64,000 nt of DNA from a virus: positions 32,001 to 96,000 of the IMG/VR virus record IMGVR_UViG_3300008113_000014; one strand, given 5' to 3'. The notes under the pieces are model-generated. The model had not been told where the DNA came from. It ran no database searches and was given only the letters and a program-made list of their open reading frames with translations. Each line of letters begins with the position of its first letter. Within the stretch, counting starts at the first letter, position 1. This document shows positions 31,740-47,074 of the stretch, one piece after another. Both the position numbers and the translations under genes were made by a program.

Positions 31740-32705
31740 TTACTGTACACCTGGAAGTGTAAAGTATGGGAAGTAAGGGTTATTTGCAGGGAAGTATGGG
31801 AAGTACGGTGGGAAGAATGGGAAGTAAGGGAAGTAAGGGAAGAATGGAGGGAAGAATGGGAAGAACGGGAAGTAAGGGAAGAAAGGTGGGAAGAACGGGA
31901 AGTATGGGAAGAACGGGAAGAAAGGTGGGAAGAACGGGAAGAATGGGAAGAACGGAAAGAAAGGTGGGAAAAATGGTGGGAAGAATGGGAAGAACGGTGG
32001 GAAGAACGGTGGGAAGAACGGAGGAAAGAACGGTGGGAAGAAAGGTGGGAAAAACGGAAAGAATGGGAAAAATGGCGGAAAGAATGGACCGAATGTAGAA
32101 ACAACAGAATTAGATGGTTGTGATGCTGCAGATGTTCCATTTGCATTTACTGCGGTAACGGTATAAGTATAAGTTCCAGCAGCAATTTCTGTAATAGTAA
32201 TTGGTGAAGCAGAACCAGTTGCAGTACGTCCAGATGAAGATGTTACAGTGTGGAATGGTGAAATTAAAGCTGAGTTTCCAGTATTTGGACTTGTAAATAT
32301 AACAGATACTACACCAGATGTTCCACCAGATGCAGATCCAATAGTTGGAGCGTTTGGCTTTGATGTTGGAACAACGGCTGCTGAGGCAGCAGATGCTGGT
32401 GATGATCCTATTGCATTTCTTGCAGTGACTGTAAAGGTATAATTTGCTGGAGTGCCAGTAGTTGACATTCCTGTAACAACTATTGGCGAAGATGCGCCAG
32501 TGGCTGTAAATCCACCAGCATTAGATGTGACTGTGTAATCAATGATTGGCATCTTGCCATCAAAAGCTGGTGGTGTAAATGCTACTGATACCTGTCCGCT
32601 ACTATATGTCCGACCTGAGCCTTGAACAGTAACTGCACCAATAGTAGGAGCTTGTGGGACTGATCTTTTTGAAGATTCGGTGGTACCATTATTAATTTGG
32701 CTCAT
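31740..32705 (-). CDS. Two fibronectin type III domains plus a ~110-aa Pro/Phe/Tyr repeat tail
   Basis: YTFTVTARNAIG and YTYTVTAVNANG Fn3 motifs; C-terminal (PFF/PPFF/PYF)n. Confidence 0.85.
   Translation of the reverse strand: MSQINNGTTESSKRSVPQAPTIGAVTVQGSGRTYSSGQVSVAFTPPAFDGKMPIIDYTVTSNAGGFTATGASSPIVVTGMSTTGTPANYTFTVTARNAIGSSPASAASAAVVPTSKPNAPTIGSASGGTSGVVSVIFTSPNTGNSALISPFHTVTSSSGRTATGSASPITITEIAAGTYTYTVTAVNANGTSAASQPSNSVVSTFGPFFPPFFPFFPFFPPFFPPFFPPFFPPFFPPFFPFFPPFFPPFFPFFPFFPFFPPFFPFFPYFPFFPPFFPYFPFFPFFPPFFPYFPYFPFFPPYFPYFPANNPYFPYFTLPGVQ
31765..32090 (+). repeat. Purine-rich 9/12-nt repeat encoding the Pro-Phe tract on the minus strand
   Basis: GGGAAGAAC/GGGAAGAACGGT-like units with synonymous variation. 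Confidence 0.9.
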
Positions 32706-37023: not shown

Positions 37024-37280
37024 GTCCTGACACGGCGTGTCGCATGTGATGTCGCTCACATCGCCTCGGGCGACTTGTCAAATCAACACGCCGATCATTT
37101 TAAGATTGTTATGAGATTGTTATAGTTTTCCCATAAATGTGACCTACATCTCATGTGATACGGCTCACAATGTCCGAATTGGTAGCATTTTGGATTAGAC
37201 ATTTGTCAGACCCCCATGCTACAATTACAGTATAAAGAAAAACAAGCGGTAAAGAAATCCGCTAAAGAAAGGTGGTCACT

Positions 37281-37457
37281 ATGACTACACTAAACACACT
37301 ATGCAAGTGGCATGAGCCTCTTGTTTCCGCTATCTCAGAAATTGGAGATGAGCAATTTACACTATGCATGAATTGCGATAGCAACATTGAGCGTTACTAC
37401 TATGATAGTGACCCTGAGCAATTTCCTACATGGACAGATTGGTATGTGACTAAATGA
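37281..37457 (+). CDS. Small Cys-containing hypothetical protein
   Basis: AGAAAGG RBS after the promoter; CxxC. Confidence 0.6.
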   Translation: MTTLNTLCKWHEPLVSAISEIGDEQFTLCMNCDSNIERYYYDSDPEQFPTWTDWYVTK

Positions 37458-37636
37458 ACGACACTATGCAATTTATAGATGAGCAAGGCTTATGCGCTAT
37501 GGATAACATTTGCGCTTTCTGCATAACACTATTTGACGGGTGGAATAGATTTTGCCCTAGATGTAAGGACTATAAGGGCGTTATGGCTCTCCCTGATTTT
37601 ATCAATACCTATGGAAAGGACGGACTCTCTAAATGA
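37454..37636 (+). CDS. Small Zn-finger-like protein
   Basis: CAFC...CPRC; ATGA overlap. Confidence 0.6.
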   Translation: MNDTMQFIDEQGLCAMDNICAFCITLFDGWNRFCPRCKDYKGVMALPDFINTYGKDGLSK

Positions 37637-37796
37637 GTACCTTTGTTAATCTCCCCTCAGTATGTGGGGCAACATCTGCAAGCGTAGATGTGTATGACTT
37701 AGACCTTAACCCTCATGGGGTTATCTGTTGTGACAATTGCAAATCAATTGTGTTATGCCGTAAGGCTTGGGACTACCTATACAAGGAGGCTAAGTA

Positions 37797-37934
37797 ATGC
37801 CAGTATTTAATTTTGAGTTATTTGTAGATGTAGAAGCAGATGATTTTGAGTCTGCCTTATCATGGCTAAAGGCTATGCCACTAGAGAGACAACTAGATTT
37901 CCATGTCATTGACTATAAGCAATTGGAGGCTTAA
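37797..37934 (+). CDS. 45-aa protein, paralog of 38646..38783
   Basis: MPVFNFELF...FESALSWLK; AGGAGG RBS. Confidence 0.75.
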   Translation: MPVFNFELFVDVEADDFESALSWLKAMPLERQLDFHVIDYKQLEA

Positions 37935-38092
37935 CAAATGAAAAAAAATGTTTTAATTAGTTTTGTAACTGAAGCAGACACAGACCTTCAAGCAGTTTTT
38001 AATTTGAATAAAGTTTTTGCTAAACTTAGCGAAAACGAATTAGAAAAATTTAATGCGTTTGAAGTTTTACCTGTTGAATAAATAAAGCCAAG

Positions 38093-38121
38093 ATCGCAGA
38101 AATAAAAACTCTGCGATTTTT
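38093..38121 (+). terminator. Intrinsic terminator
   Basis: ATCGCAGA / TCTGCGAT stem plus T-run. Confidence 0.7.
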
Positions 38122-38645
38122 GCCTCGGGGAGCTGTGTGATGAGTATCACAAAAAATAATTCTACGACACGCCCGAAAAGGTCCCCAATTTGTCAGTGGT
38201 ACCTGCTAGAATTGCTAGTATAAACAAAAAGAAAGGTCGTTAAATAAATGACACTAGATGAATACAAGGCGCTTGTAGAAGCGCAACGCAAGGCAAGCAC
38301 CTTGCAAGCCATGTCCCTACTAAAGAAAGGCTCAGACAAATGAGCACTTTTGATAGAATACTAAAAGAGCAACAAGAAAAAAGAATTGCTCAATCAATAA
38401 AAGATAAAGCGGTTATTGAAGCCATGTTCTCCAATAACAATCGCCCCCTTAACAATAATCATGAATTAAAGAAAGTAGAAAACTAATGAAAACTAATTTT
38501 GAGATTTCTCAACAGATAAACACTCTTGCTAAAAAGCACTATGGAGACATGGACTTAGCATGGTCATGGGGTTGCGCCCAAGCACTACTAACTACACCAC
38601 AGTTAGAGTTAATTCTAGGAATACTATTAGAGAAGGAGCCAGATA

Positions 38646-38783
38646 ATGCCAGTATTTAATTTTGACATTTCTGTTACCATTGAGGACGATAATTTTGAGT
38701 CTGCTTTATCATGGTTAAAAGTTATTCCATTGGAACGACTTGATTTTATTGTTGTTGATTATACAGAATTGGAGTTAGACTAA
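38646..38783 (+). CDS. 45-aa protein, paralog of 37797..37934
   Basis: MPVFNFDIS...FESALSWLK; AAGGAG RBS. Confidence 0.75.
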   Translation: MPVFNFDISVTIEDDNFESALSWLKVIPLERLDFIVVDYTELELD

Positions 38784-38857
38784 TGCTGGTTGTTTTAATT
38801 GCTATCACTTCATTTGCTTTTGTAATTTGGATGCATAACGGAGCATAATAAAAAAAG

Positions 38858-38885
38858 ATCACAGAACTAAAAAGCTGTGATTTTT
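38858..38885 (+). terminator. Intrinsic terminator
   Basis: ATCACAG / CTGTGAT stem plus T-run; related to the 38093 hairpin. Confidence 0.7.
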
Positions 38886-39147
38886 GCTCGGGCGTTTTCC
38901 ACAGGCTGTGTATAACTTATGTGTTTAAGGTCACACAAAATCTTTCCCATTTTACGGCGTGTCGTTTTGACTTCCTGAAACTTATCTGGTATCCTTGTAG
39001 GTATAACAATTAAATAAAGATAAATCAGGCAGTGAGCCTAGCAAATAAATGTGACGAGTATCACAGTGAGCCTAGCGAATAAATGCCAAGATTTGTCAGC
39101 CCCCCGTGATAGGATAGTCTTATCACTTAAAGAAAGGAAGTCTATAA

Positions 39148-39345
39148 ATGACTTACACTATAACACTAGAAACCTTTAATGGTTCTACTAAAAAAATCAA
39201 CCTTGCCTCTAAGGGTGCGGTTGCTCAATTCGTATCACAATACCCAACACAATTACCTGTTGGCGTATCTGTAAAAATCGCTTGCGATACTCTTGGAATA
39301 AGTGGCACACTTCGTGGCACTTCTACACTAACAAAAACAAACTAA
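39148..39345 (+). CDS. Hypothetical protein
   Basis: AGAAAGGAAG RBS after the promoter. Confidence 0.7.
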   Translation: MTYTITLETFNGSTKKINLASKGAVAQFVSQYPTQLPVGVSVKIACDTLGISGTLRGTSTLTKTN

Positions 39346-39364
39346 AGAATAGGAAATAAAATAA

Positions 39365-39568
39365 ATGAAAATTGAACACAATCTAAAATTCGTAACTGAA
39401 TTTGCAGAGGGCCACCCTGTAACTGCAACAGTAATGGCACTTGATGAAAGCACTCGTATCCTTATGCTAGAGTCAATGCTAAAAGATTTGGTAGGCTCTC
39501 GCCTGCAACCTATCCTTGATGAAATAAATGCTGGTGGGTCCTATGCAATTCTAAAGGTGGCCGAATAA
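39365..39568 (+). CDS. Hypothetical protein
   Basis: ORF in operon. Confidence 0.65.
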   Translation: MKIEHNLKFVTEFAEGHPVTATVMALDESTRILMLESMLKDLVGSRLQPILDEINAGGSYAILKVAE

Positions 39569-39768
39569 TGATGACTCGTAAAGACTATGTAAAAGTTGCC
39601 GAAATTCTTAGCAACTATTTTGCTACATCTGTTTTTGATGAACAAGGAGAAATTTTATTTGCTGATTTGGTAGATGAATTTTCTCTAATGTTTGAAACTG
39701 ATAACCCAAGATTTGACTCTGACAGATTTGCTATTGCTTGCTATAAAGAATTGGAGATGTCAAATTGA
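39568..39768 (+). CDS. Hypothetical protein (MTRKDY...DNPRFD..RF..AC family)
   Basis: Recurrent small phage protein motif; coupled start. Confidence 0.7.
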   Translation: MMTRKDYVKVAEILSNYFATSVFDEQGEILFADLVDEFSLMFETDNPRFDSDRFAIACYKELEMSN

Positions 39769-39920
39769 TTTTAGATACTGGAACACTAATCGCAATCGTA
39801 ATTGCACTTGGCGGATCTTTAACAGTTATGTGTTTATTTTGGAAACAAAATATTGCACAACAAAAAGAAATTCGCAGATTACAAATTTTATTGCGAACTG
39901 AGCGACTAAAATAAAATAAA

Positions 39921-39950
39921 AGACCTGAGCATGTCTGTGCAAAACTGCTT
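39921..39950 (+). ncRNA. H-type pseudoknot motif, copy 1
   Basis: AGAC-CT-GAGCA-T-GTCT...AAAC-TGCTT. Confidence 0.7.
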
Positions 39951-40187
39951 GATCCTTTTAAATAAAAAAAGCTCGGGGGTTTTTCCACAGGCCTTTGTGG
40001 ATAACTTTACGTGGTTGTGATTTTTCTCACATTTGTTGAGCGTCTCATTATTTAAGACTACTCACTAGTAGGTTGATAAATTATGATTAACAGGATAGAC
40101 TTACATAGTAAGAAAAAATAAATAACCGAAATTTGTCAGACCCTAGTGGTAGGATAAATAAATAACAACAAAGAAAGAGGTTGGCAA

Positions 40188-40400
40188 ATGTCAGCAAATG
40201 TCTATTCAATAGAAAACCTACTTGTAGGAAAAACTTATCACTCACGCACTTTAACAGGCGAAATCATAGATGCAGAAAAGTCTGATGTCTTTTATGGCTC
40301 AGGCTTAGAAAGTTATCGTGTTCAGGTTCGCCCACACTATCCTTCAGTATTTAATCTAAAGGACACTTATCGTATTCTATCAGTAAAGGTTGGAGAATAA
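40188..40400 (+). CDS. Hypothetical protein
   Basis: GAGG RBS after the promoter. Confidence 0.65.
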   Translation: MSANVYSIENLLVGKTYHSRTLTGEIIDAEKSDVFYGSGLESYRVQVRPHYPSVFNLKDTYRILSVKVGE

Positions 40401-40404
40401 ATAA

Positions 40405-40596
40405 ATGGGAAACTTACTAGACTTTTTGGTTGATTGTGTTGATTGCCATGATGAGGGTGTCCTCTTTTTTGGTAATGGTGGCGAGGAATACGACTCAGAA
40501 TTTTGCGATTGCGCTAAAGGCGTGTCGCTTGAAAATGAATACTGTGCATGGTATGCTGAAAGTATCATGAACGAAAACTATAAGGAGAATAACTAA
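40405..40596 (+). CDS. Cys-rich hypothetical protein
   Basis: CVDC...CDC; GGAG RBS. Confidence 0.6.
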   Translation: MGNLLDFLVDCVDCHDEGVLFFGNGGEEYDSEFCDCAKGVSLENEYCAWYAESIMNENYKENN

Positions 40597-40814
40597 TGAA
40601 CGAATACCTATACTCAGTTACTTGTACCTATGACTCAGATACCTCCACCACTTGGGTAGGGCGTTATAGTGACGCTTTATCTGCCGTTGAAAGTTATCAA
40701 AAGTTTATTGACCATGGACTTGCTAAAGAATACTCAACAATTAACTTGTCTGAACCTTCAGGCAAGATGCACACAAAAACTTTCTACAAAACAGGATTGG
40801 TGGTAACACGATAA
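40596..40814 (+). CDS. Hypothetical protein
   Basis: AAGGAG RBS; coupled start. Confidence 0.65.
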   Translation: MNEYLYSVTCTYDSDTSTTWVGRYSDALSAVESYQKFIDHGLAKEYSTINLSEPSGKMHTKTFYKTGLVVTR

Positions 40815-41137
40815 TGGGACACAATACAGCGATTGACTTAGCAGAAAACATTGACATAAGCCTTGAACAGGCTATCGGTTATCACTTACAGGGTAATCAC
40901 TACCCACCCGTACCGCTAAGCATGGTTCAGCCTTGCATTGAGGCGTTAGACGCTGCACGAGAAATGGACGCCATGCGCCAGATTGAAATGCCTGAAGGCA
41001 TAACCTATAAGGGCAAAACTCATGCACCAGCATGGGCTATCATTGAACAACACCACTTGGACGCTTGGTTGCCACAAGATGAGGCAGACTATTGGGAAGA
41101 AGATGCAGGCTATGAATCAGGATTAGGTTTAGAATAA
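40814..41137 (+). CDS. Hypothetical protein (HL..NHYPPVP family)
   Basis: Coupled ORF. Confidence 0.7.
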   Translation: MGHNTAIDLAENIDISLEQAIGYHLQGNHYPPVPLSMVQPCIEALDAAREMDAMRQIEMPEGITYKGKTHAPAWAIIEQHHLDAWLPQDEADYWEEDAGYESGLGLE

Positions 41138-41211
41138 ATGAGTACTTTTTTTATTCCACACTCAAAGTATTGCGATTGCCCAGAGTGTTTAGACATGGAG
41201 GAACAGAATAA

Positions 41212-41445
41212 ATGAGTGCTACAATTATTGACATGGAACTTGTAAAAGCTGATTCTCTAACTGTTGATGCGTTAGAACTTGGCGATCTAATTGGTTATGG
41301 TGATGAGATTGTTGAAGTAACTTTTATTGAATGTGATTCAACGGGAGATAACTATGACATTCAAATTGTAAATGATTTTGGTGAAAAAGAAATTGTTCAG
41401 TTTGCATTTGATGAAGAAGTTGATTGGTACGTTTATTTAGATTGA
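41212..41445 (+). CDS. Acidic hypothetical protein
   Basis: GGAGG RBS. Confidence 0.65.
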   Translation: MSATIIDMELVKADSLTVDALELGDLIGYGDEIVEVTFIECDSTGDNYDIQIVNDFGEKEIVQFAFDEEVDWYVYLD

Positions 41446-41671
41446 AAAACGCCCGAGGGGGCCCTGTGAGATTCATCACATTTACGAGATTTGATATTTT
41501 TCCCCATATCTGGTAAAATTATTACATGAAGAAAAATGCTGAGGAATTAAGACGCCTAATGGAATTACGGCGATCTAATGCAGCCTCCGCTGTTCCAAAT
41601 AAAAAAAAGTATGATAGAAAAAAATGTCAGTCCCTTATGCTAAAATTAAAGAAAGAAAGCGAGTAGCCACC

Positions 41672-42394
41672 ATGTCAAAATTACTTAGAAGCAAAGATAG
41701 GAAAGTAGCAAATGCAGTTACACCAAATGGAAAACAAGCAAGTATCGCCAACACTTTCGGATTACCCGCAGGCAAGGCTTATTCATGTCCTGGAGCGACT
41801 AGCGTATGCGAGAGTGTTTGTTATGCTGGCAAGCTTGAAAAAGTATTCCCAACAGTAAAGAAAAACTTATTGCACAATTGGGAATTAGTTAAAGACGCAG
41901 ACCATGACACTATTGAAGCATTGCTTGAAGACATGATTAGTGAGTTTATTGCAGACTGCAAAAAGAAAGACGCACCCATGCTATTCCGTATCCACTGGGA
42001 CGGGGATTTCTTTAATGACACTTACACATTCGCATGGAAGCATGTCATTCTTAATCATCCTGAAATTCAATTCTGGGTTTATACAAGAGTTAAGTCTGCA
42101 GCGGTAATGCTTAAGGACATTGATAATCTATCTTTATACTATTCTACAGATAGTGAGAATAAGTCTATTGGCGTTACCCTGAAAAAAGATCATGGTATTC
42201 GTCTTGCATACCTTGCTAAGAATTTCTTAGTAGGACAAGCAGACATGAAAGAGATGATAGGCAAGGTAGGGGCTAAGTGTCCTGAGAATAAAAAGGCTAT
42301 CCCACTTATCTCAACAAATGGTTCGGCTTGCGTTTCTTGCTCATTGTGTGTATACTCAAAGAGTGACATAGTATTTTCATCAAGTAAAAAGTAA
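41672..42394 (+). CDS. Gp88-like Cys-rich (radical-SAM-like) protein
   Basis: FGLPAG..SCPGAT..C...CYA and FRIHWDGDF motifs; start after promoter/RBS. Confidence 0.7.
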   Translation: MSKLLRSKDRKVANAVTPNGKQASIANTFGLPAGKAYSCPGATSVCESVCYAGKLEKVFPTVKKNLLHNWELVKDADHDTIEALLEDMISEFIADCKKKDAPMLFRIHWDGDFFNDTYTFAWKHVILNHPEIQFWVYTRVKSAAVMLKDIDNLSLYYSTDSENKSIGVTLKKDHGIRLAYLAKNFLVGQADMKEMIGKVGAKCPENKKAIPLISTNGSACVSCSLCVYSKSDIVFSSSKK

Positions 42395-42582
42395 GGAGAT
42401 AAATGGAAAGCCTATTTATCCTATTAGTAATGGGGTTATTAGTGTTTATGATTTACCAATAAGTGACTTACATCACACCCGTAAGCGTCTCAAATAGTGA
42501 GAAATACAAGAAATGGAGTTGAAAAATGTCAGTAGGAAATGTTATACTTAATACATACAACAAACTAAAAAGGAGAAACAAC

Positions 42583-42747
42583 ATGACAGTAGCAAATACA
42601 TACAAGGTAGGCGACCTCTACACATCACAGAAGTCAAAGGTAACAGGAACAATTCTTGAAATCTCACCTACTGCAAAGGACACAGTTCGTGTTAAGTTAG
42701 ATGTTAATGGTAACACACGCTGGACAACATGGAAAGCGCAATCGTAA
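42583..42747 (+). CDS. Small SH3-like hypothetical protein
   Basis: AAGGAG RBS; YKVGDL...GTILEI. Confidence 0.65.
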   Translation: MTVANTYKVGDLYTSQKSKVTGTILEISPTAKDTVRVKLDVNGNTRWTTWKAQS

Positions 42748-42773
42748 TCTAACAAGCCAGTTAGATAGTAACT

Positions 42774-42803
42774 CAGACCTGAGCAAGTCTGCTAAAACTG
42801 CTC
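42774..42803 (+). ncRNA. H-type pseudoknot motif, copy 2
   Basis: CAGAC-CT-GAGCA-A-GTCTG...AAAC-TGCTC. Confidence 0.7.
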
Positions 42804-42866
42804 ACACAAAATGTCAGACCTAACCCCTATACTATAAATAAACCACCAAAGAAAAGAGAAAAACAC

Positions 42867-43289
42867 ATGGCACGACAAAAAGCAATCTCAGTAAAGATAG
42901 CAACACCAAAAGTAATCAAGGCACTAGAAACTGCACTAGCAAAGTTAGAAGCAGACTACGCATCACAAGAAGCAAACGAGGCTAAGTATGAAAAGACTCG
43001 TAAGGCTTGGCTAAAAGAAATGCAAGACTACGCTATTGCTAACATCAAGAAGGCAGAGAACTTTCGCACCAACTATCGTTCATGGTCAAATAATCTTAAC
43101 ATTGACTTTGACTTAACAGTTAGCGAAAAGGATTTGCCTAAAGAGCCTGAGAAGGACTTTGAGACAATTCATGTTCATAGTTATCGTGAGCAGAAAGAGG
43201 AAATCTCTAACGCAATTCGTATTCTAAAGATGACAGATGAGGAAACAGTTTCCACATCAACTTATCAAGCGGTTGCTCGTTATCTGTAA
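42867..43289 (+). CDS. Hypothetical protein
   Basis: 140-aa ORF after promoter 42812. Confidence 0.75.
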   Translation: MARQKAISVKIATPKVIKALETALAKLEADYASQEANEAKYEKTRKAWLKEMQDYAIANIKKAENFRTNYRSWSNNLNIDFDLTVSEKDLPKEPEKDFETIHVHSYREQKEEISNAIRILKMTDEETVSTSTYQAVARYL

Positions 43290-43325
43290 ATAATTTGGGG
43301 GGCAACTTAAAGTCCTAAACCCAAA

Positions 43326-43352
43326 CAACCTAAGCAAGTTGCAAAACTGCTT
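43326..43352 (+). ncRNA. H-type pseudoknot motif, copy 3
   Basis: CAAC-CT-AAGCA-A-GTTG-CAAAAC-TGCTT. Confidence 0.7.
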
Positions 43353-43389
43353 CACTAAAGTTACTGCCAGTGCTATAGCGAGGCAGACG

Positions 43390-43416
43390 TTCCTGAGCAT
43401 GAATTGAAAAGGCTCA
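43390..43416 (+). ncRNA. H-type pseudoknot motif, copy 4 (weaker)
   Basis: TTC-CT-GAGC-AT-GAA...AAAG-GCTC. Confidence 0.55.
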
Positions 43417-43559
43417 CTTTTTGCCCCCGAGCTCATGTGAATTTGATCACACCCTTTACGTACCACCATTTAAGATCCCTGGATTTACGATTGGCATTTG
43501 TCAGTCCAACCTGCTAGAATTATATTAATATCAGAACAACAGAAAGAAGGAAGCCCCCA

Positions 43560-44057
43560 ATGGGACTAGACATGTACCTAAGTGCTAGAAAGCATTTTGA
43601 AAAAATCAACTGGCAAACACTACAGGCTAATGATGAATTATCTTACAATTCACCTGAAGCCGTATATCCTAAGTTCAATGACCTAATGGCATTGACACAA
43701 CTCACAAATGTTGCAACAGATATTTATGGAGCAGAAGTAACAGTTACTTGTGCCTACTGGCGCAAGGCTAATCAGATACACGCTTGGTTCGTAAAGAATG
43801 TTCAACATGATGTTGATAACTGCGGAGACTACTATGTCTCACAAGATAAACTAATAGAATTGCTTGCACTATGTAAGCATGCCCTAGCAACAAAAGACCC
43901 TAGCCTATTCCCACCACAAGCAGGGTTTTTCTTTGGTGGTACAGATATTGATGAATGGTATTGGCGTGACCTTACTGATACTATTAGTCAATTAGAGCGT
44001 ATCTTTGCGCTACCAGAAATTGATAAGTTATCATTTTTTTATTCATCATCTTGGTAA
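43560..44057 (+). CDS. Conserved phage protein (MGLDMYL...YWRKANQIHAWF)
   Basis: Recognisable motif; RBS. Confidence 0.75.
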   Translation: MGLDMYLSARKHFEKINWQTLQANDELSYNSPEAVYPKFNDLMALTQLTNVATDIYGAEVTVTCAYWRKANQIHAWFVKNVQHDVDNCGDYYVSQDKLIELLALCKHALATKDPSLFPPQAGFFFGGTDIDEWYWRDLTDTISQLERIFALPEIDKLSFFYSSSW

Positions 44058-44121
44058 TTGACATTTGTCAGTGCCATACCCTATAATTAAACTAACCAAC
44101 AAACAGAAAGAGGTAGCCCTC

Positions 44122-44559
44122 ATGGACCAGCAACAAATTCCACCAGTAGTAAAAACAGATAATCACTACATGACACGAGAGTTTTTAGAAACTACTCTTG
44201 TACAAAACAAAACACGGATAGATGAATTAGAAAAGCATATCCAAGTCGTAACACAACGCTCATACGGCGAGGCTGCAGAGCGCAACCGTATGCGTACTGA
44301 AATGCAAGAGTGGACTTTTGAAGCAATTGAAGCAGGCACACTCAATGAGTCAGAAGGACAAGAAATTGCTGACATCTGTGGCTTTGAACTTACAAAAGAA
44401 TTTGAAGTTGAAGTTACAGTTATGTATTCAGTTACAGTGAATGCACGAAATGAAGAAGAAGCACAAAATGCAATTCACGATATTGATTTTGATACTGTAG
44501 ATTACAATTCAGATTCAATTCAATACCTATCATCTTCAATTGATAGAGTAGATATTTAG
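44122..44559 (+). CDS. Hypothetical protein
   Basis: GAAAGAGG RBS defines the start. Confidence 0.7.
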   Translation: MDQQQIPPVVKTDNHYMTREFLETTLVQNKTRIDELEKHIQVVTQRSYGEAAERNRMRTEMQEWTFEAIEAGTLNESEGQEIADICGFELTKEFEVEVTVMYSVTVNARNEEEAQNAIHDIDFDTVDYNSDSIQYLSSSIDRVDI

Positions 44560-44574
44560 TAGGGGGCTACTAAT

Positions 44575-44601
44575 GGACCTGAGCATGTCCTTAAACTGCT
44601 T
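44575..44601 (+). ncRNA. H-type pseudoknot motif, copy 5
   Basis: GGAC-CT-GAGCA-T-GTCC-TTAAAC-TGCTT. Confidence 0.7.
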
Positions 44602-44780
44602 TATTTTTATTTATGCCGTTGCATAAAAATGCAGCTCGGGGGCGTGACCAAGATCACACTGTGTTTTACGACACATTAAAAAAATGTCCATTTTTTCCCA
44701 TTTTCAACTATCCTGATTTGCATTTGTCAGACCCATTGTGTATAATTAAATTAACTACAAAAGAAAAGGAAAAATAACTC

Positions 44781-45797
44781 ATGGCACATGAACTAGAAAC
44801 ACAAAATGGCGTAGCAAGTTTTGCCTCATTTCGTGAACCTGCTTGGCATGGATTGGGTACTGTATTCACAGAGGAAAAAACCACAAAAGAAATGTTAGAT
44901 TTGGCTAATCTTTCTAATTGGAATGTTCGTCTTGAGGATTTGGAAACCCCTTCACATTTAACAAGCGACAAAAACTATCAGTATGTTTTGCGTACTAACC
45001 CTACAGATACAACACAGACAGACATTTTAGGTGTCGTTGGTGAGCGTTATCATGTTATGCAAAACGAGGATTTATTCTCATTTGGCGATAACATTTTAGA
45101 TGGTGGTGGTCGTTGGGAAACGGCTGGCTCAATCAAGGGTGGTCGTGTCGTATTTGGTGCGTTAGCACTAGAGCGTGAAACTATTCTTGACCCTAATGGT
45201 GTTGCAGATAAGGTAAAGACTTATTTGCTCATCAATACATCACATGACGGCTCAATCGCTATTCAAGCAAGCATAACACCTGTTCGTGTTGTGTGCGCTA
45301 ACACTCTTAATCTTGCGCTTAACACTACAAAAAAGAAAAATGGCGTTAAGCAATCTTTCAAGATACGCCATACACAAACTGCAAGCGGTAAGGTTGCCGT
45401 TGCTCGTGAAACTCTTGGGCTTGCTCATAAGTACATGGACTCTTTTGACCTCATGGCTAAGGCTATGATTGAAAAAGAAATCAATGCTACACAATTCAAT
45501 GACATCATTTTGGCTGCCTATCCAAAGCCTGAAAAGGACTCTAAGGGTGCTTTCAAGAAATGGGAAAACAAGGTAGATGTTATTAACGACATTTACACAG
45601 GCGAGTTTAACGGCATGATTGCTGGTAACGCTTGGGGTGCTTTCAATGCACTAACTGAACGCCTTGATTGGTATCGTTCTGCTCGTGGTGGTTCTAACGA
45701 ATCTATCCTTGCAAGCGCAAGCGGATTTGACCCTGCTATTAACGCAGAAAAAAATCGTTTGCTAAAAGTTGTGCAAAATGTTTTGCAAATTGCATAA
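44781..45797 (+). CDS. DUF932-family phage/plasmid protein
   Basis: PAWHGLG, ETAGSIKGG, SHDGS, PVRVVCANTL and AWGAFNALTE motifs. Confidence 0.85.
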   Translation: MAHELETQNGVASFASFREPAWHGLGTVFTEEKTTKEMLDLANLSNWNVRLEDLETPSHLTSDKNYQYVLRTNPTDTTQTDILGVVGERYHVMQNEDLFSFGDNILDGGGRWETAGSIKGGRVVFGALALERETILDPNGVADKVKTYLLINTSHDGSIAIQASITPVRVVCANTLNLALNTTKKKNGVKQSFKIRHTQTASGKVAVARETLGLAHKYMDSFDLMAKAMIEKEINATQFNDIILAAYPKPEKDSKGAFKKWENKVDVINDIYTGEFNGMIAGNAWGAFNALTERLDWYRSARGGSNESILASASGFDPAINAEKNRLLKVVQNVLQIA

Positions 45798-45804
45798 CTA
45801 AAAA

Positions 45805-45832
45805 AAATCCTGAGCAAGATTTAAAACTGCTC
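45805..45832 (+). ncRNA. H-type pseudoknot motif, copy 6
   Basis: AAATC-CT-GAGCA-A-GATTT-AAAAC-TGCTC; ends 4 nt before tRNA-Asp. Confidence 0.7.
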
Positions 45833-45836
45833 GCAA

Positions 45837-45910
45837 GGTTCCATAGATCAATTGGTTAGATCGCTACCCTGTCACGGTAGAGGCTACGGGTTCAAGTCCC
45901 GTTGGAATCG
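45837..45910 (+). tRNA. tRNA-Asp(GTC)
   Basis: Cloverleaf; CTACC-CTGTCAC-GGTAG anticodon arm, GGTTCAAGTCC T arm; no encoded CCA. Confidence 0.93.
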
Positions 45911-46057
45911 CAAGCTTAAGTGGGCCCCGAGGAAATTAGTACAAAACGGACATTTAAGAAACTATATAAATAATCTCAGAAAATTTAATTACGACAGACT
46001 TGCTTTTTTCCCAGTTTTTTGCTACAATTAATTTATGACTACCACAGGAGAAAAATA

Positions 46058-46270
46058 ATGGAACAATTCATAGATACACTAGCAGAGCACATTACAGGTG
46101 CTATCCAACAAGAAATAGCAGAAGAACTATTTGACCAATGGTCTTACAATAATTTAGAGGAAGGTGAGGACTATGCAGAAAACAAATTCATGCAATACGC
46201 CTCAGATGAATTAAAGCAACAGTATAACGAATACTATGGGTACATAGAGGGAGATGAATTCCTACTATGA
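46058..46270 (+). CDS. Acidic hypothetical protein
   Basis: AGGAG RBS. Confidence 0.65.
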   Translation: MEQFIDTLAEHITGAIQQEIAEELFDQWSYNNLEEGEDYAENKFMQYASDELKQQYNEYYGYIEGDEFLL

Positions 46271-47074
46271 TTACCTCTCAAGAACTAATTGATTATATGT
46301 ATGACGATAACCTAATACATTTTGACGACAGAGATACATCAGATGATTGTGATTGCCACATTCATATAACACTACAAACTATGATTAAATATATGGAGGC
46401 AATTGAATGCTAGGTTATACCATTGATGATTTAGATAAGATGAGCAATGCTGTACACAATGCATACAAGCATATCACTGACCCTGATGATAAAGAGGGTA
46501 TTTTAATGGCACAACAATTTCTCCAGGGCCTATGGGCAGAAGGGTACTTTGACTAATGACACTAGACGATGTATTAGATAAGATTGAGGCTATCATTGAT
46601 AGTACTCATTCTGTTGTATCCCCGCTAAAAATGGATCACTGCAAGTACTGTACCACTTGGCTTACTCTGACAGAGGAGTTAAACTAATGTGGACTAAATA
46701 TGATTATCTATGTACTGACTGTGATGCTCTTATTGAGGTCACTACCCTGCAAGATCTGAGACGAGATGTCTATGGCTCTTGTCCCTGTGGATCTAATAAG
46801 ACAATTAACATTGGGGTAGGAGATGCCTCTCGCCATGAAGAACCTGTGACGAACATCACACCTGTCAGACTTGTCAAAATCAACAGCAACCCCTATAATT
46901 GATATATGGACCTAAATACATTAAGAGAGTATATAAAAATTCACCTAATTTCATTGGAGCAAGATGTTGAGGACGCTAACAATGATATTCCTATTAGTGA
47001 TGATGAGCACTATGAAGCAGACCTTTATTACGAGGGAGCAATCGCTACCTGTGAACACCTATTGGAGTATATAA

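Follow-up and report, generated by a model that had tools for sequence, protein, structure and literature searches.

The window, a 64,000-nt stretch of viral DNA (positions 32,001 to 96,000 of IMG/VR record IMGVR_UViG_3300008113_000014), carries on its + strand, between 39921 and 45833, five strict copies and one variant of the element S1-C-UGAGCA-W-S1'-NNAAAC-UGCUC(A). The features of this region are the following:

39765-39914, + strand, small ORF (alternative frame 39692-39901), whose stop codon, TAA at 39912-14, precedes copy 1
39921-39951, + strand, pseudoknot copy 1; stem 1 AGAC/GTCT (39921-24 with 39933-36), loop 1 C39925, stem 2 TGAGCA/TGCTT(G) (39926-31 with 39946-51), loop 3 GUGCAAAAC of 9 nt; CM R1 score 37.7 bits, E 2.5e-8
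42526-42747, + strand, small early gene with copy 2 downstream
42774-42804, + strand, pseudoknot copy 2; stem 1 CAGAC/GUCUG, stem 2 UGAGCA/UGCUCA, loop 3 CUAAAAC; CM score 42.6 bits
42867-43289, + strand, early gene of 140 aa with copies 3 and 4 downstream
43326-43352, + strand, pseudoknot copy 3; stem 1 CAAC/GUUG, stem 2 AAGCA/UGCUU with (T) before AAGCA; CM score 37.7 bits
43390-43416, + strand, pseudoknot copy 4, a variant (subtype 2); stem 1 UUC/GAA, tail AAAAGGCTCA; CM score 20.3 bits, E 0.005
44122-44559, + strand, early gene with copy 5 at its 3' end
44575-44601, + strand, pseudoknot copy 5; stem 1 GGAC/GUCC, stem 2 GAGCA/UGCUU with a G·U pair, loop 3 UUAAAC; CM score 43.8 bits
44781-45797, + strand, DUF932 gene (phrog_1221, E 2.9e-101) of 338 aa with copy 6 at its 3' end
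45805-45833, + strand, pseudoknot copy 6; stem 1 AAAUC/GAUUU, stem 2 UGAGCA/UGCUCG; CM score 46.5 bits
45837-45911, + strand, tRNA-Asp(GTC), 4 nt 3' of copy 6

All six copies announced in a preliminary description of this DNA (at 39921, 42774, 43326, 43390, 44575 and 45805) were found at those positions, the one at 43390 being the variant. The search pattern CCTRAGCAW-N(3-12)-AAACTGCTY was run over the whole 108,863-bp virus record and gave 5 matches in the forward direction, none in the reverse and none with the reversed control, while the chance expectation was well below 0.01 matches (the pattern fixes about 16 bases, and 109 kb were searched); the opposite strand held no copy of the pseudoknot. 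As the same description had it, five copies follow a stop codon, the gap to stem 1 being 6 nt (39921), 26 nt (42774), 36 nt (43326), 15 nt (44575) and 7 nt (45805), and copy 45805 adjoins tRNA-Asp. The 4-nt gap between them is too small for a promoter, so copy 6 and the tRNA must be co-transcribed. In stem 2 of copy 3 there is an A-U pair where the other copies have G-C.

The six elements are copies of one compact H-type RNA pseudoknot, about 27-31 nt long, and covariation supports both helices. Stem 1 has 4 pairs (range 3-6), covaries freely and is always closed by a C-G pair; loop 1 is a single C and the junction is one base, A or U and less often C. Stem 2, of 6 pairs (UGAGCA with UGCUCA), is near-invariant in sequence and its changes are compensated. 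Loop 3 is usually of 6 nt and ends in AAAC, with a UUAAAC or UAAAAC spacer in 44 of 103 copies. Only about 6 unpaired bases are conserved. Among the 103 copies, stem 1 was 96% paired, and three of its positions showed each of the four Watson-Crick pairs; its covariation score was 0.39 versus 0.09 in shuffles, and none of 500 shuffles scored as high. For stem 2, extra copies were sought with four of its pairs left free, and it was fully complementary in 25 of the 27 obtained, the variants including GGAC/GUCC, AGAC/GUCU, GGGU/ACCC, GGCC/GGCC and AAAU/AUUU. Over 54 copies, four of the six pairs showed compensatory changes with no unpaired cells (GC 46, AU 6, GU 2; AU 47, GC 6, GU 1; GC 50, AU 3, CG 1; CG 40, UG 10, UA 4). 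The frequent G·U pairs fit an RNA of the sense strand; they fit neither DNA nor the antisense strand. The earlier proposal of a structured pseudoknot with covarying stems, on the transcribed strand and at gene 3' ends, is thus upheld by the positions and by the covariation in related sequences.

The family is absent from Rfam 15 and is very widespread in phages and mobile elements. With Rfam 15 nothing overlapped the elements in 39000-47000 even at E ≤ 10, including preQ1-I, pistol, hatchet, twister-sister and the viral pseudoknots, and at the gathering threshold the tRNA alone passed; the first reading had likewise been unable to assign a known family, and a literature search found no publication describing it. 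Among the matches listed there were more than 119 IMG/VR contigs, and other carriers were a T4-like cyanophage, a gut Firmicutes phage and a 5-kb Microviridae genome; in Saccharibacteria the element was located within mobile elements of 17 of 151 genomes. It occurs in hundreds of unrelated phages and is no peculiarity of the early units of this phage, whereas the first reading had treated it as one. Apart from hypothetical proteins, the annotation of the Microviridae genome comprises only capsid, scaffold, replication and DNA-binding genes; the copy there is flanked by the genes for the DNA-binding protein and the capsid.

The element goes with the 3' end of the gene before it, as indicated by its sense strand, the floor in its distance from the stop, its persistence between convergent genes and its variable distance to the next start codon. 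Gene contexts were co-directional in 99 cases and convergent in 13, versus divergent in 8 and antisense in 2. Stem 1 starts 4-10 nt 3' of the stop codon; the distance from stop to loop has a sharp floor at 8 nt, where the copies pile up, with a mode of 8-12 nt. Among the preceding stops TAA is enriched and TGA depleted (8% versus 28% in the background). A co-directional tRNA (Asp, Arg or Ser) begins 4-13 nt downstream of 15 of 157 copies (about 10%), and a Shine-Dalgarno sequence with a start codon stands 13-38 nt downstream in about 34 copies. The order DUF932, pseudoknot, tRNA-Asp is repeated in at least 10 IMG/VR contigs, DUF932 being the most frequent family 5' of the element (16 of 107 upstream proteins). 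Tandem copies occur in the window (43326/43390, copy 4 lying about 37 nt 3' of copy 3) and in L118, L054 and L041.

Of the RNAs already known, coremin xrRNA and the luteovirus-type pseudoknots come nearest to the phage element, which resembles both and is a member of neither. Coremin (xrRNA-C) and its Watson-Crick variant (xrRNA-WCC) are found in beny-, cucumo- and other eukaryotic RNA viruses (PMC10520033, PMC10321173, PMC6546385). In both coremin and the phage element a short hairpin closed by C-G has C as its first loop base, and the C...A-W ends of the phage loop fit the Y...A-D ends of the coremin hp1 loop consensus, YGAD or YGNNAD (PMC10520033). The loop is, however, of 8 nt in the phage (C-U-G-A-G-C-A-W) and of 4-6 nt in coremin, and its G stands third in the former and second in the latter. 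An A-rich spacer directly follows the 3' arm in both, GUUAAAC in coremin and UUAAAC or UAAAAC in the phage copies mentioned, and in each case the loop pairs with the bases after the spacer, so that a compact H-type pseudoknot is formed. The coremin spacer is of about 10 nt (GUUAAACUAC) and its CUAC contacts the loop, whereas the phage element has UGCUC(A) instead, so that stem 2 comprises 5-6 Watson-Crick pairs as against about 3 non-canonical pairs in coremin and 3 canonical ones in xrRNA-WCC. Both are tiny elements of very high sequence conservation, often placed just past an ORF or in intergenic regions. The second coremin hairpin, hp2, needed for Xrn1 resistance, is not conserved after the phage element: a hairpin starts within 6 nt in only 20% of copies, and the downstream 30 nt have a mean MFE of -2.8 kcal/mol versus -2.3 in shuffles. 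The hosts also differ, being bacteria, which lack Xrn1, and the phage element is carried by DNA phages and mobile elements.

In the -1 frameshift pseudoknots of luteoviruses and enamoviruses (BWYV, PLRV; PMC10321173) stem 1 measures 4-5 bp, loop 1 is 1-2 nt long and the A-rich loop 3 has 6-7 nt, with a single base at the junction. The phage element has the same dimensions, with a loop 3 that can occupy the minor groove of stem 1, and lies likewise 4-10 nt after the A-site codon; unlike them, it is preceded by a stop codon instead of a slippery heptamer and has many copies per genome. A role as stimulatory pseudoknot of -1 frameshifting was rejected: it would call for a slippery heptamer 5-9 nt upstream and an overlapping -1 ORF, whereas a stop codon stands in place of the slippery site, no other frame holds an extended ORF, and the spacing covers all three frames.

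Among 3' stabilisers and processing punctuation are the RNase III sites of T7 early RNAs, the weak terminators T_J, T_F, T_G and T_H of phiX174, and the REP elements. Like them, the phage element is a repeated structure right after stops, between cistrons of read-through transcripts, and the position of the Microviridae copy is that of phiX174 T_J, a weak terminator and mRNA stabiliser. It differs in being a pseudoknot of near-fixed sequence, not a strong GC-rich hairpin or long duplex, in lacking a U-tract and in being common to phages of unrelated hosts.

Five functions had been suggested beforehand (3' exonuclease block, terminator, processing signal, small ribozyme and protein-binding site), and we infer that the exonuclease block and the processing signal are the best readings. 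Our leading candidate, to which we give somewhat less than an even chance, is a protein-independent decay barrier that caps the cistron boundary. The RNA would act in cis, with no dedicated phage protein, as a small and mechanically stable barrier placed just beyond the stretch that a ribosome covers while terminating. Early transcripts would continue through the pseudoknot into whatever comes next, be it a promoter unit, a cistron or a tRNA. After an endonucleolytic cut downstream, possibly by RNase P at a tRNA or by an RNase E/Y-type enzyme in the G-poor, A/U-rich tail, the upstream message would end in the folded pseudoknot and only a few unpaired bases. Since 3'-to-5' exonucleases would be unable to engage or pass this structure, long transcripts would be punctuated into individually stabilised messages. 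Reading through followed by processing is suggested by the tRNAs and start codons so close downstream and by the tandem copies, and the lack of a dedicated partner by the presence of the element in a 5-kb Microviridae genome and in phages of very different hosts. Against the decay barrier are the short helices and the nested MFE of only -4 to -7 kcal/mol per copy, ordinary 3' stabilisers being much stronger hairpins. It is also not obvious why a generic barrier should have a stem 2, loop 1 C and AAAC near-invariant across phyla, a pattern that could equally reflect a conserved binding partner. The look-alikes, coremin and the frameshift pseudoknots, also count against it, for they resist enzymes arriving from the 5' side and not from the 3' side.

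The opposite polarity is a reading that we consider unlikely: the element as a prokaryotic counterpart of xrRNA/coremin that would stop RNase J (5'-to-3') or sliding post-termination or read-through ribosomes. Whatever lies downstream, a cistron, a tRNA or a convergent gene, would thereby be shielded from events on the upstream cistron. A pseudoknot 4-10 nt past a codon can act, through its position at the ribosomal helicase, on the ribosome decoding that codon, and this is the geometry of stem 1 relative to the stop; the depletion of TGA and the tandem arrangement, as in flaviviral xrRNAs, agree with this reading. Coremin (GUCCGAAGACGUUAAACUAC, PMC10520033) shares the C-G closed hairpin, the first loop C and the UUAAAC/UAAAAC spacer, and, like its Watson-Crick variant, it stalls Xrn1 as well as scanning ribosomes and stimulates frameshifting (PMC10321173). 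However, the anchor of the phage element is the upstream stop codon and not the downstream gene, and it is kept where nothing downstream needs protection, in the 13 convergent contexts and before tRNAs excised by RNase P. Moreover, the hairpin that coremin needs downstream is not conserved, and luteoviral pseudoknots of equal size fail to stall Xrn1 (PMC10321173). In a broader and rather doubtful proposal, dsDNA and ssDNA phages and conjugative-type elements of many bacterial phyla would share a protein-independent "roadblock RNA", a prokaryotic counterpart of coremin/xrRNA halting exoribonucleases and/or ribosomes at gene boundaries; if true, each message would owe its stability and independence to this RNA, whatever the host.

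That stem 2, the C of loop 1 and AAAC hardly vary between cyanophages, gut Firmicutes phages and the elements of Saccharibacteria is what would be expected for a sequence-specific partner common to all these hosts. The element may accordingly serve as a signal, for recognition or for processing, to a conserved cellular factor that cuts or binds there (an endoribonuclease, RNase P acting on the minihelix-like stack of both stems, or a ribosomal or RNA-binding protein), a reading we hold to be quite unlikely. ACCA is the most frequent 4-mer after the element (12 of 153 copies), but that is only 8%; a TYMV-type tRNA-like acceptor-arm pseudoknot, for which (A)CCA is expected directly 3', was rejected on the same count. 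No candidate protein co-occurs, the commonest neighbour, DUF932, being upstream in only those 16 of 107 cases and not among the annotated Microviridae genes, and tertiary contacts within the fold can also give invariance, as in coremin.

Taking into account the sharp lower bound of the stop-to-element spacing, with copies piled there, and the bias for TAA over TGA, the pseudoknot might touch the ribosome at the stop and tune termination, recycling or re-initiation at the next cistron. This is improbable, for no stop codon lies near the second and third copies of tandem arrays, the frame from stop to element is not conserved and so gives no read-through product, and genome compaction together with staying outside the ribosome would yield the same spacing.

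A terminator or pause site for the host RNA polymerase is very improbable. The element does sit between promoter-driven units devoid of classical + strand terminators, and its 3' tail is mildly T-rich and G-poor; yet there is no U-tract, a T-run of at least 4 follows only 24% of copies, operon-internal ones being no different from the others, and the tRNAs or start codons downstream must be co-transcribed. The + strand terminators earlier ascribed to neighbouring modules exist only upstream, at 36.6-38.3 kb, and no terminator-like site was found on the + strand at 38.4-48.5 kb; a Rho-independent terminator, for which a GC-rich hairpin with a U-tract directly 3' of it is expected, was rejected as the identity of the element.

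A self-cleaving ribozyme, a ligand-binding aptamer or a DNA-level site (e.g., an ssDNA hairpin) is hardly credible: the unpaired bases are strongly conserved, the size is near that of the preQ1-I aptamer, and ssDNA phages and regions like conjugative elements carry the element, but no Rfam family matches at E ≤ 10, those conserved bases are few in so short an RNA, many copies per genome stand behind unrelated genes, and the common G·U pairs would be A-C mismatches on the opposite strand. The evidence gave no support to the small ribozyme suggested at first. With preQ1-I the element shares a roughly 30-nt H-type pseudoknot and an A-rich tail; this candidate was rejected (no RF00522 match; a one-base junction without the ligand-pairing C loop), and the phage element lies after genes, not in 5' leaders, and is not linked to queuosine genes. 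A type III toxin-antitoxin RNA (ToxI-like), for which identical tandem repeats beside an endoribonuclease toxin gene are expected, was also rejected, as the copies are dispersed after unrelated genes with a different stem 1 in each.

It was also possible to see some local features at individual copies. A promoter-like TGTCAG-N10-TATACT starts at 42812, 8 nt 3' of copy 2, and the hairpin TTAGTAGggggCTACTAA 5' of copy 5 includes the stop codon 44557-59. In copy 4 the subtype 2 tail is AAAAGGCUCA and stem 2 is UGAGC/GCUCA, shifted by one base; this subtype is also present in five other carriers (L041, L012, L068, L081 and L062).

The window covers bases 32001-96000 of the virus record (108,863 bp, 37% G+C). 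The reading of its positions 39800-46000 found all six pseudoknots that the preliminary description had placed at 39921-45832, and stem 1 (S1), which it had described as distinct in each copy yet always paired, is so in all six. The copies are the following:

39921, + strand, pseudoknot copy 1
42774, + strand, pseudoknot copy 2
43326, + strand, pseudoknot copy 3
43390-43416, + strand, pseudoknot copy 4, with the tail AAAAGGCTCA and stem 2 (S2) moved by one base to TGAGC/GCTCA
44575, + strand, pseudoknot copy 5
45805, + strand, pseudoknot copy 6

Over the whole virus record, the pattern CCTRAGCAW-N(3-12)-AAACTGCTY had five matches on the + strand, corresponding to five of the six window elements, and none on the − strand; a reversed control pattern gave none either. 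Nested folding with ViennaRNA, which is unable to draw pseudoknots, chose S1 in some copies and S2 in others, as is expected when two nested helices of comparable strength exclude each other.

IMG/VR, scanned for the exact pattern, has at least 148 matches in at least 119 contigs. In 140 of the 148 matches listed, the 3-6 bases before CCTGAGCA-N-G were the reverse complement of those after it (about 14% expected by chance). In an alignment of 103 copies (A1) stem 1 was paired in 96%, with all four Watson-Crick pair types at three positions and an invariant closing C-G, and its covariation score was 0.39 versus 0.09 in shuffled alignments, none of 500 shuffles scoring as high. Stem 2 is fixed by the search pattern behind A1, and it was therefore evaluated separately with a covariance model of stem 1 only (R1) and a relaxed scan in which four S2 pairs were left free. 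This search of the fetched loci gave 27 extra candidates, 25 of them complementary at all four pairs (chance about 2% each), with the compensated forms GGAC/GUCC, AGAC/GUCU, GGGU/ACCC, GGCC/GGCC, AAAU/AUUU and GAGU/ACUC; window copy 43326 (AAGCA/UGCUU) is another such form. In the resulting alignment of 54 copies (A3), from which the two non-complementary candidates were omitted as probable false positives, a slightly circular step, four of the six stem-2 pairs change on both sides with zero unpaired cells. Both stems are supported by covariation, and comparative evidence thus establishes the pseudoknot. G.U pairs are common; they would be A-C mismatches on the opposite strand and are poor in DNA, so that it is the sense RNA which folds. 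A generic scan of the genome for the S1/S2 geometry alone was far too loose, with about 1,400 matches per strand.

The typical element has a stem 1 of 4 bp, a loop 1 consisting of C, a stem 2 of 6 bp and a one-base junction (U in 47 copies, A in 42, C in 12 and G in 2). Loop 3 is 6 nt long in 80 of 103 copies, most commonly UAAAAC or UUAAAC. Conservation ends about 3 nt beyond UGCUC; after that comes a stretch of about 10 nt poor in G and rich in A/U. A second subtype, with the tail AAAAGGCUCA, has a 5-bp stem 2 (UGAGC/GCUCA) which covaries to UAAGC with GCUUA in the carrier locus L012; it is often the second copy of a tandem pair. Its sites in the window and in fetched carrier loci are:

Window, 43390-43416
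L041, 3320-3356 and 3670-3706
L012, 11344-11380 and 12068-12104
L068, 1972-2008
L081, 4518-4554

Carriers were identified among several kinds of phage, with one to eight copies per genome. BLAST with one copy, together with the model, located the element in the T4-like Cyanophage S-RIM4 (Kyanoviridae), where 6 nt separate it from the preceding CDS and 24 nt from the following one, and in a gut phage of the Christensenellales. In a Microviridae genome of 5,035 bp it lies between the DNA-binding-protein gene and a small ORF preceding the capsid gene (28.2 bits with the model); a second 5-kb record is a BLAST match only. Ten carrier contigs of 4.4-6.5 kb were considered as Microviridae and rejected, since their largest ORFs (DNA polymerase A, DnaB-primase, RNR, helicases and others) are of tailed-phage type and mark them as tailed-phage fragments. 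Among cultured phages the 6-kb region had no megablast match, and a protein search with a tail-fibre gene gave collagen-like repeat matches only.

In the bacterial species collection most exact-pattern matches were chance occurrences lacking stem 1 and about a quarter were real, mainly in MAGs of Saccharibacteria/CPR, Firmicutes, Chloroflexi, Cyanobacteria and Actinobacteria, with a few Proteobacteria MAG contigs. Restriction to RNase J hosts was examined on these intact-stem-1 matches by phylum, and on class samples, which are sparse. The model search of 151 genomes per class, with 45 candidates scored per genome so that the counts are floors, found the element in at least 17 Saccharimonadia, 2 Clostridia, 1 Bacteroidia and 1 Gammaproteobacteria (weak), and in none of the Actinomycetes. 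The Saccharibacteria copies sit in contexts that are mobile-element-like: the pseudoknot comes after a small DUF3768, DUF2958 or DUF7249 gene, and a convergent Replic_Relax gene ends at it (loci L248-L257, from genomes G003, G025, G055, G061, G082, G099, G120 and G144). In several of the fetched Saccharimonadia regions the pseudoknot, at its 3′ end, and the Replic_Relax stop codon overlap.

Upstream proteins mostly belong to no named family. DUF932 was found in 16 of 107, including window 44781-45797, and the other named families were ArdA, DUF3768, DUF2958, DUF4192, HSP20 and ssDNA-binding proteins, which have a flavour of early, anti-restriction or "leading-region" genes.

The element had been held not to be assignable to a known family, and a search of Rfam 15 bears this out: matches at gathering score were tRNAs only, and the elements themselves had none at E≤10. 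Full-text searches (motif strings; phage pseudoknot with exoribonuclease) retrieved no description of it, nor is such an element discussed in the text of the 2023 catalogue, which covers over 10,000 candidate phage RNAs. The closest likeness is to the plant-virus motif coremin (PMC10520033, PMC10321173, PMC6546385), GUCCGAAGACGUUAAACUAC, a hairpin closed by C-G with C as the first base of its loop; GUUAAAC comes next, and after it loop-contacting bases (PMC10520033). In the model of its authors it is an H-type pseudoknot like that of BWYV, and it can halt both Xrn1 and scanning ribosomes and stimulate frameshifting (PMC10321173). The likeness is real, as seen in window copy 5 (GGAC-C-UGAGCA-U-GUCC-UUAAAC-UGCUU). 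Membership is rejected, however: coremin needs the hairpin hp2, which is not conserved in the phage element, the loop and stem 2 of the latter are larger, and its carriers are DNA phages of bacteria. By analogy, the element would work like a compact pseudoknot of the luteovirus/coremin type, being a member of neither family. It represents a very widespread, previously undescribed RNA family of phages and mobile elements, of putative function. Structured RNAs so small, conserved and widespread (this one is carried by hundreds of phage contigs) are rare, and those with neither Rfam family nor paper are rarer still.

The element lies on the sense strand of the upstream gene, in 99 co-directional, 13 convergent, 8 divergent and 2 antisense contexts. 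The distance from stop codon to CCU has a sharp floor of 8 nt and a mode of 8-12 nt (17 copies at 8, none at 4-7 and one at 3), so that stem 1 starts 4-10 nt past the stop codon. The preceding stop codons are TAA in 72%, TAG in 20% and TGA in 8%, against a background of 55%, 17% and 28% in the same loci. A start codon with a Shine-Dalgarno sequence lies 13-38 nt downstream of about 34 copies, and 15 of 157 lie 4-13 nt upstream of a co-directional tRNA, including window copy 45805 before tRNA-Asp; the other downstream neighbours are promoters, as in the window, or the end of a convergent gene. Some arrays have two or three copies 60-180 nt apart, such as 43326/43390. Two or three pseudoknots about 60-80 nt apart were also seen in G+C-richer phage contigs (L118:7399-7580 and L054:11864-11958).

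The element is an RNA pseudoknot attached to the upstream gene at its 3′ end. Polymerase has to read through it for the adjacent tRNA or cistron to be made, and it is not an intrinsic terminator. A dedicated phage protein is unlikely, since the Microviridae genome offers no candidate for one. We tentatively favour its being a 3′-terminal barrier to decay. The compact barrier would keep its fold immediately beyond the ribosome that is terminating; the minimum of about 5 nt from stop codon to core stem presumably sets the first pair right past the helicase site of the ribosome when the stop codon occupies the A site. An RNase P cut at the tRNA, or an endonuclease cut in the A/U-rich tail, would then leave the pseudoknot as the 3′-terminal structure of the upstream message, with a remaining tail too short for 3′ exonucleases. 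Should the element suffice on its own to block RNA decay or ribosomes, mobile DNA would have a general, host-independent control of message stability, phage biology would be linked to the exonuclease-resistant RNAs of eukaryotic viruses, and a 30-nt host-independent operon insulator would be available for synthetic biology. The element is also of use to annotators of phage early regions, which are poorly annotated, as a marker of where genes truly end and of which strand is transcribed.

The main rival, an xrRNA-type roadblock that would act on its 5′ side against RNase J or against ribosomes that slide, is unlikely, since the convergent contexts and the tRNA adjacency favour the 3′ barrier over protection of downstream RNA. 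The near-invariance of stem 2, the loop 1 C and AAAC is what the 3′ barrier explains least well. That a universal factor binds or processes the RNA at this site is quite unlikely. A termination-linked role, which would concern the closely spaced stop codon, is highly doubtful. As for a transcription terminator, an option of the preliminary description, a T-run of at least 4 follows only 24% of copies irrespective of context, so that a U-tract is neither enriched nor context-dependent, and no terminator-like + strand sites occur within 38.4-48.5 kb; with read-through also needed, this part of the interpretation is very improbable, while the structured 3′ RNA element stands and the underlying observation is greatly extended. 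A ribozyme, an aptamer or a DNA site is hardly credible.

Two further candidates were rejected. A tRNA-like 3′ end is no defining feature: of the 4-mers that follow the element ACCA is the commonest, yet it occurs after only 8% of copies. A switch by pairing of CCUGAGC with the GC-rich box GCUCGGGGG is feasible for copies 1 and 5 only, and the opposite orientation of the box in other modules excludes it as a general device.

Several minor features accompany the elements. The gene order DUF932 (about 335-350 aa), pseudoknot, tRNA-Asp is kept in at least 10 IMG/VR contigs besides window 44781-45911 (loci L012, L028, L039, L043, L052, L064, L067, L076, L099, L115 and L117). A 7-bp hairpin, TTAGTAG-gggg-CTACTAA, at 44554-44572 spans the stop codon of the 44122-44559 gene directly 5′ of copy 5. 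In at least three further contigs TAGTAGGGGGCTACTAAT likewise stands before the pseudoknot, behind gene homologues of about 135-142 aa, and L081 has a diverged form, TGATAGGGGGCTATC (loci L010, L041, L068 and L081). Between the pseudoknot and the next promoter there is a second repeated module, a G+C-rich CYCGRG box (CTCGGGGG or the complement CCCCGAG, in either orientation) and then a CRP-like palindrome, TGTGA-N6-TCACA. The TGTCAG-N10-TAnnnT promoter lies further downstream, with TTTACG between in several modules; ten such promoters were located at 37204-44746. The CYCGRG-box module occurs in the window at:

37045-37070
38124-38151
39972-40031
41452-41480
43424-43451
44635-44657
45925-45931

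A 19-codon hydrophobic ORF, MESLFILLVMGLLVFMIYQ, too small for the ORF list, was found at 42403-42462, directly after the 256-aa phrog_1392 gene.
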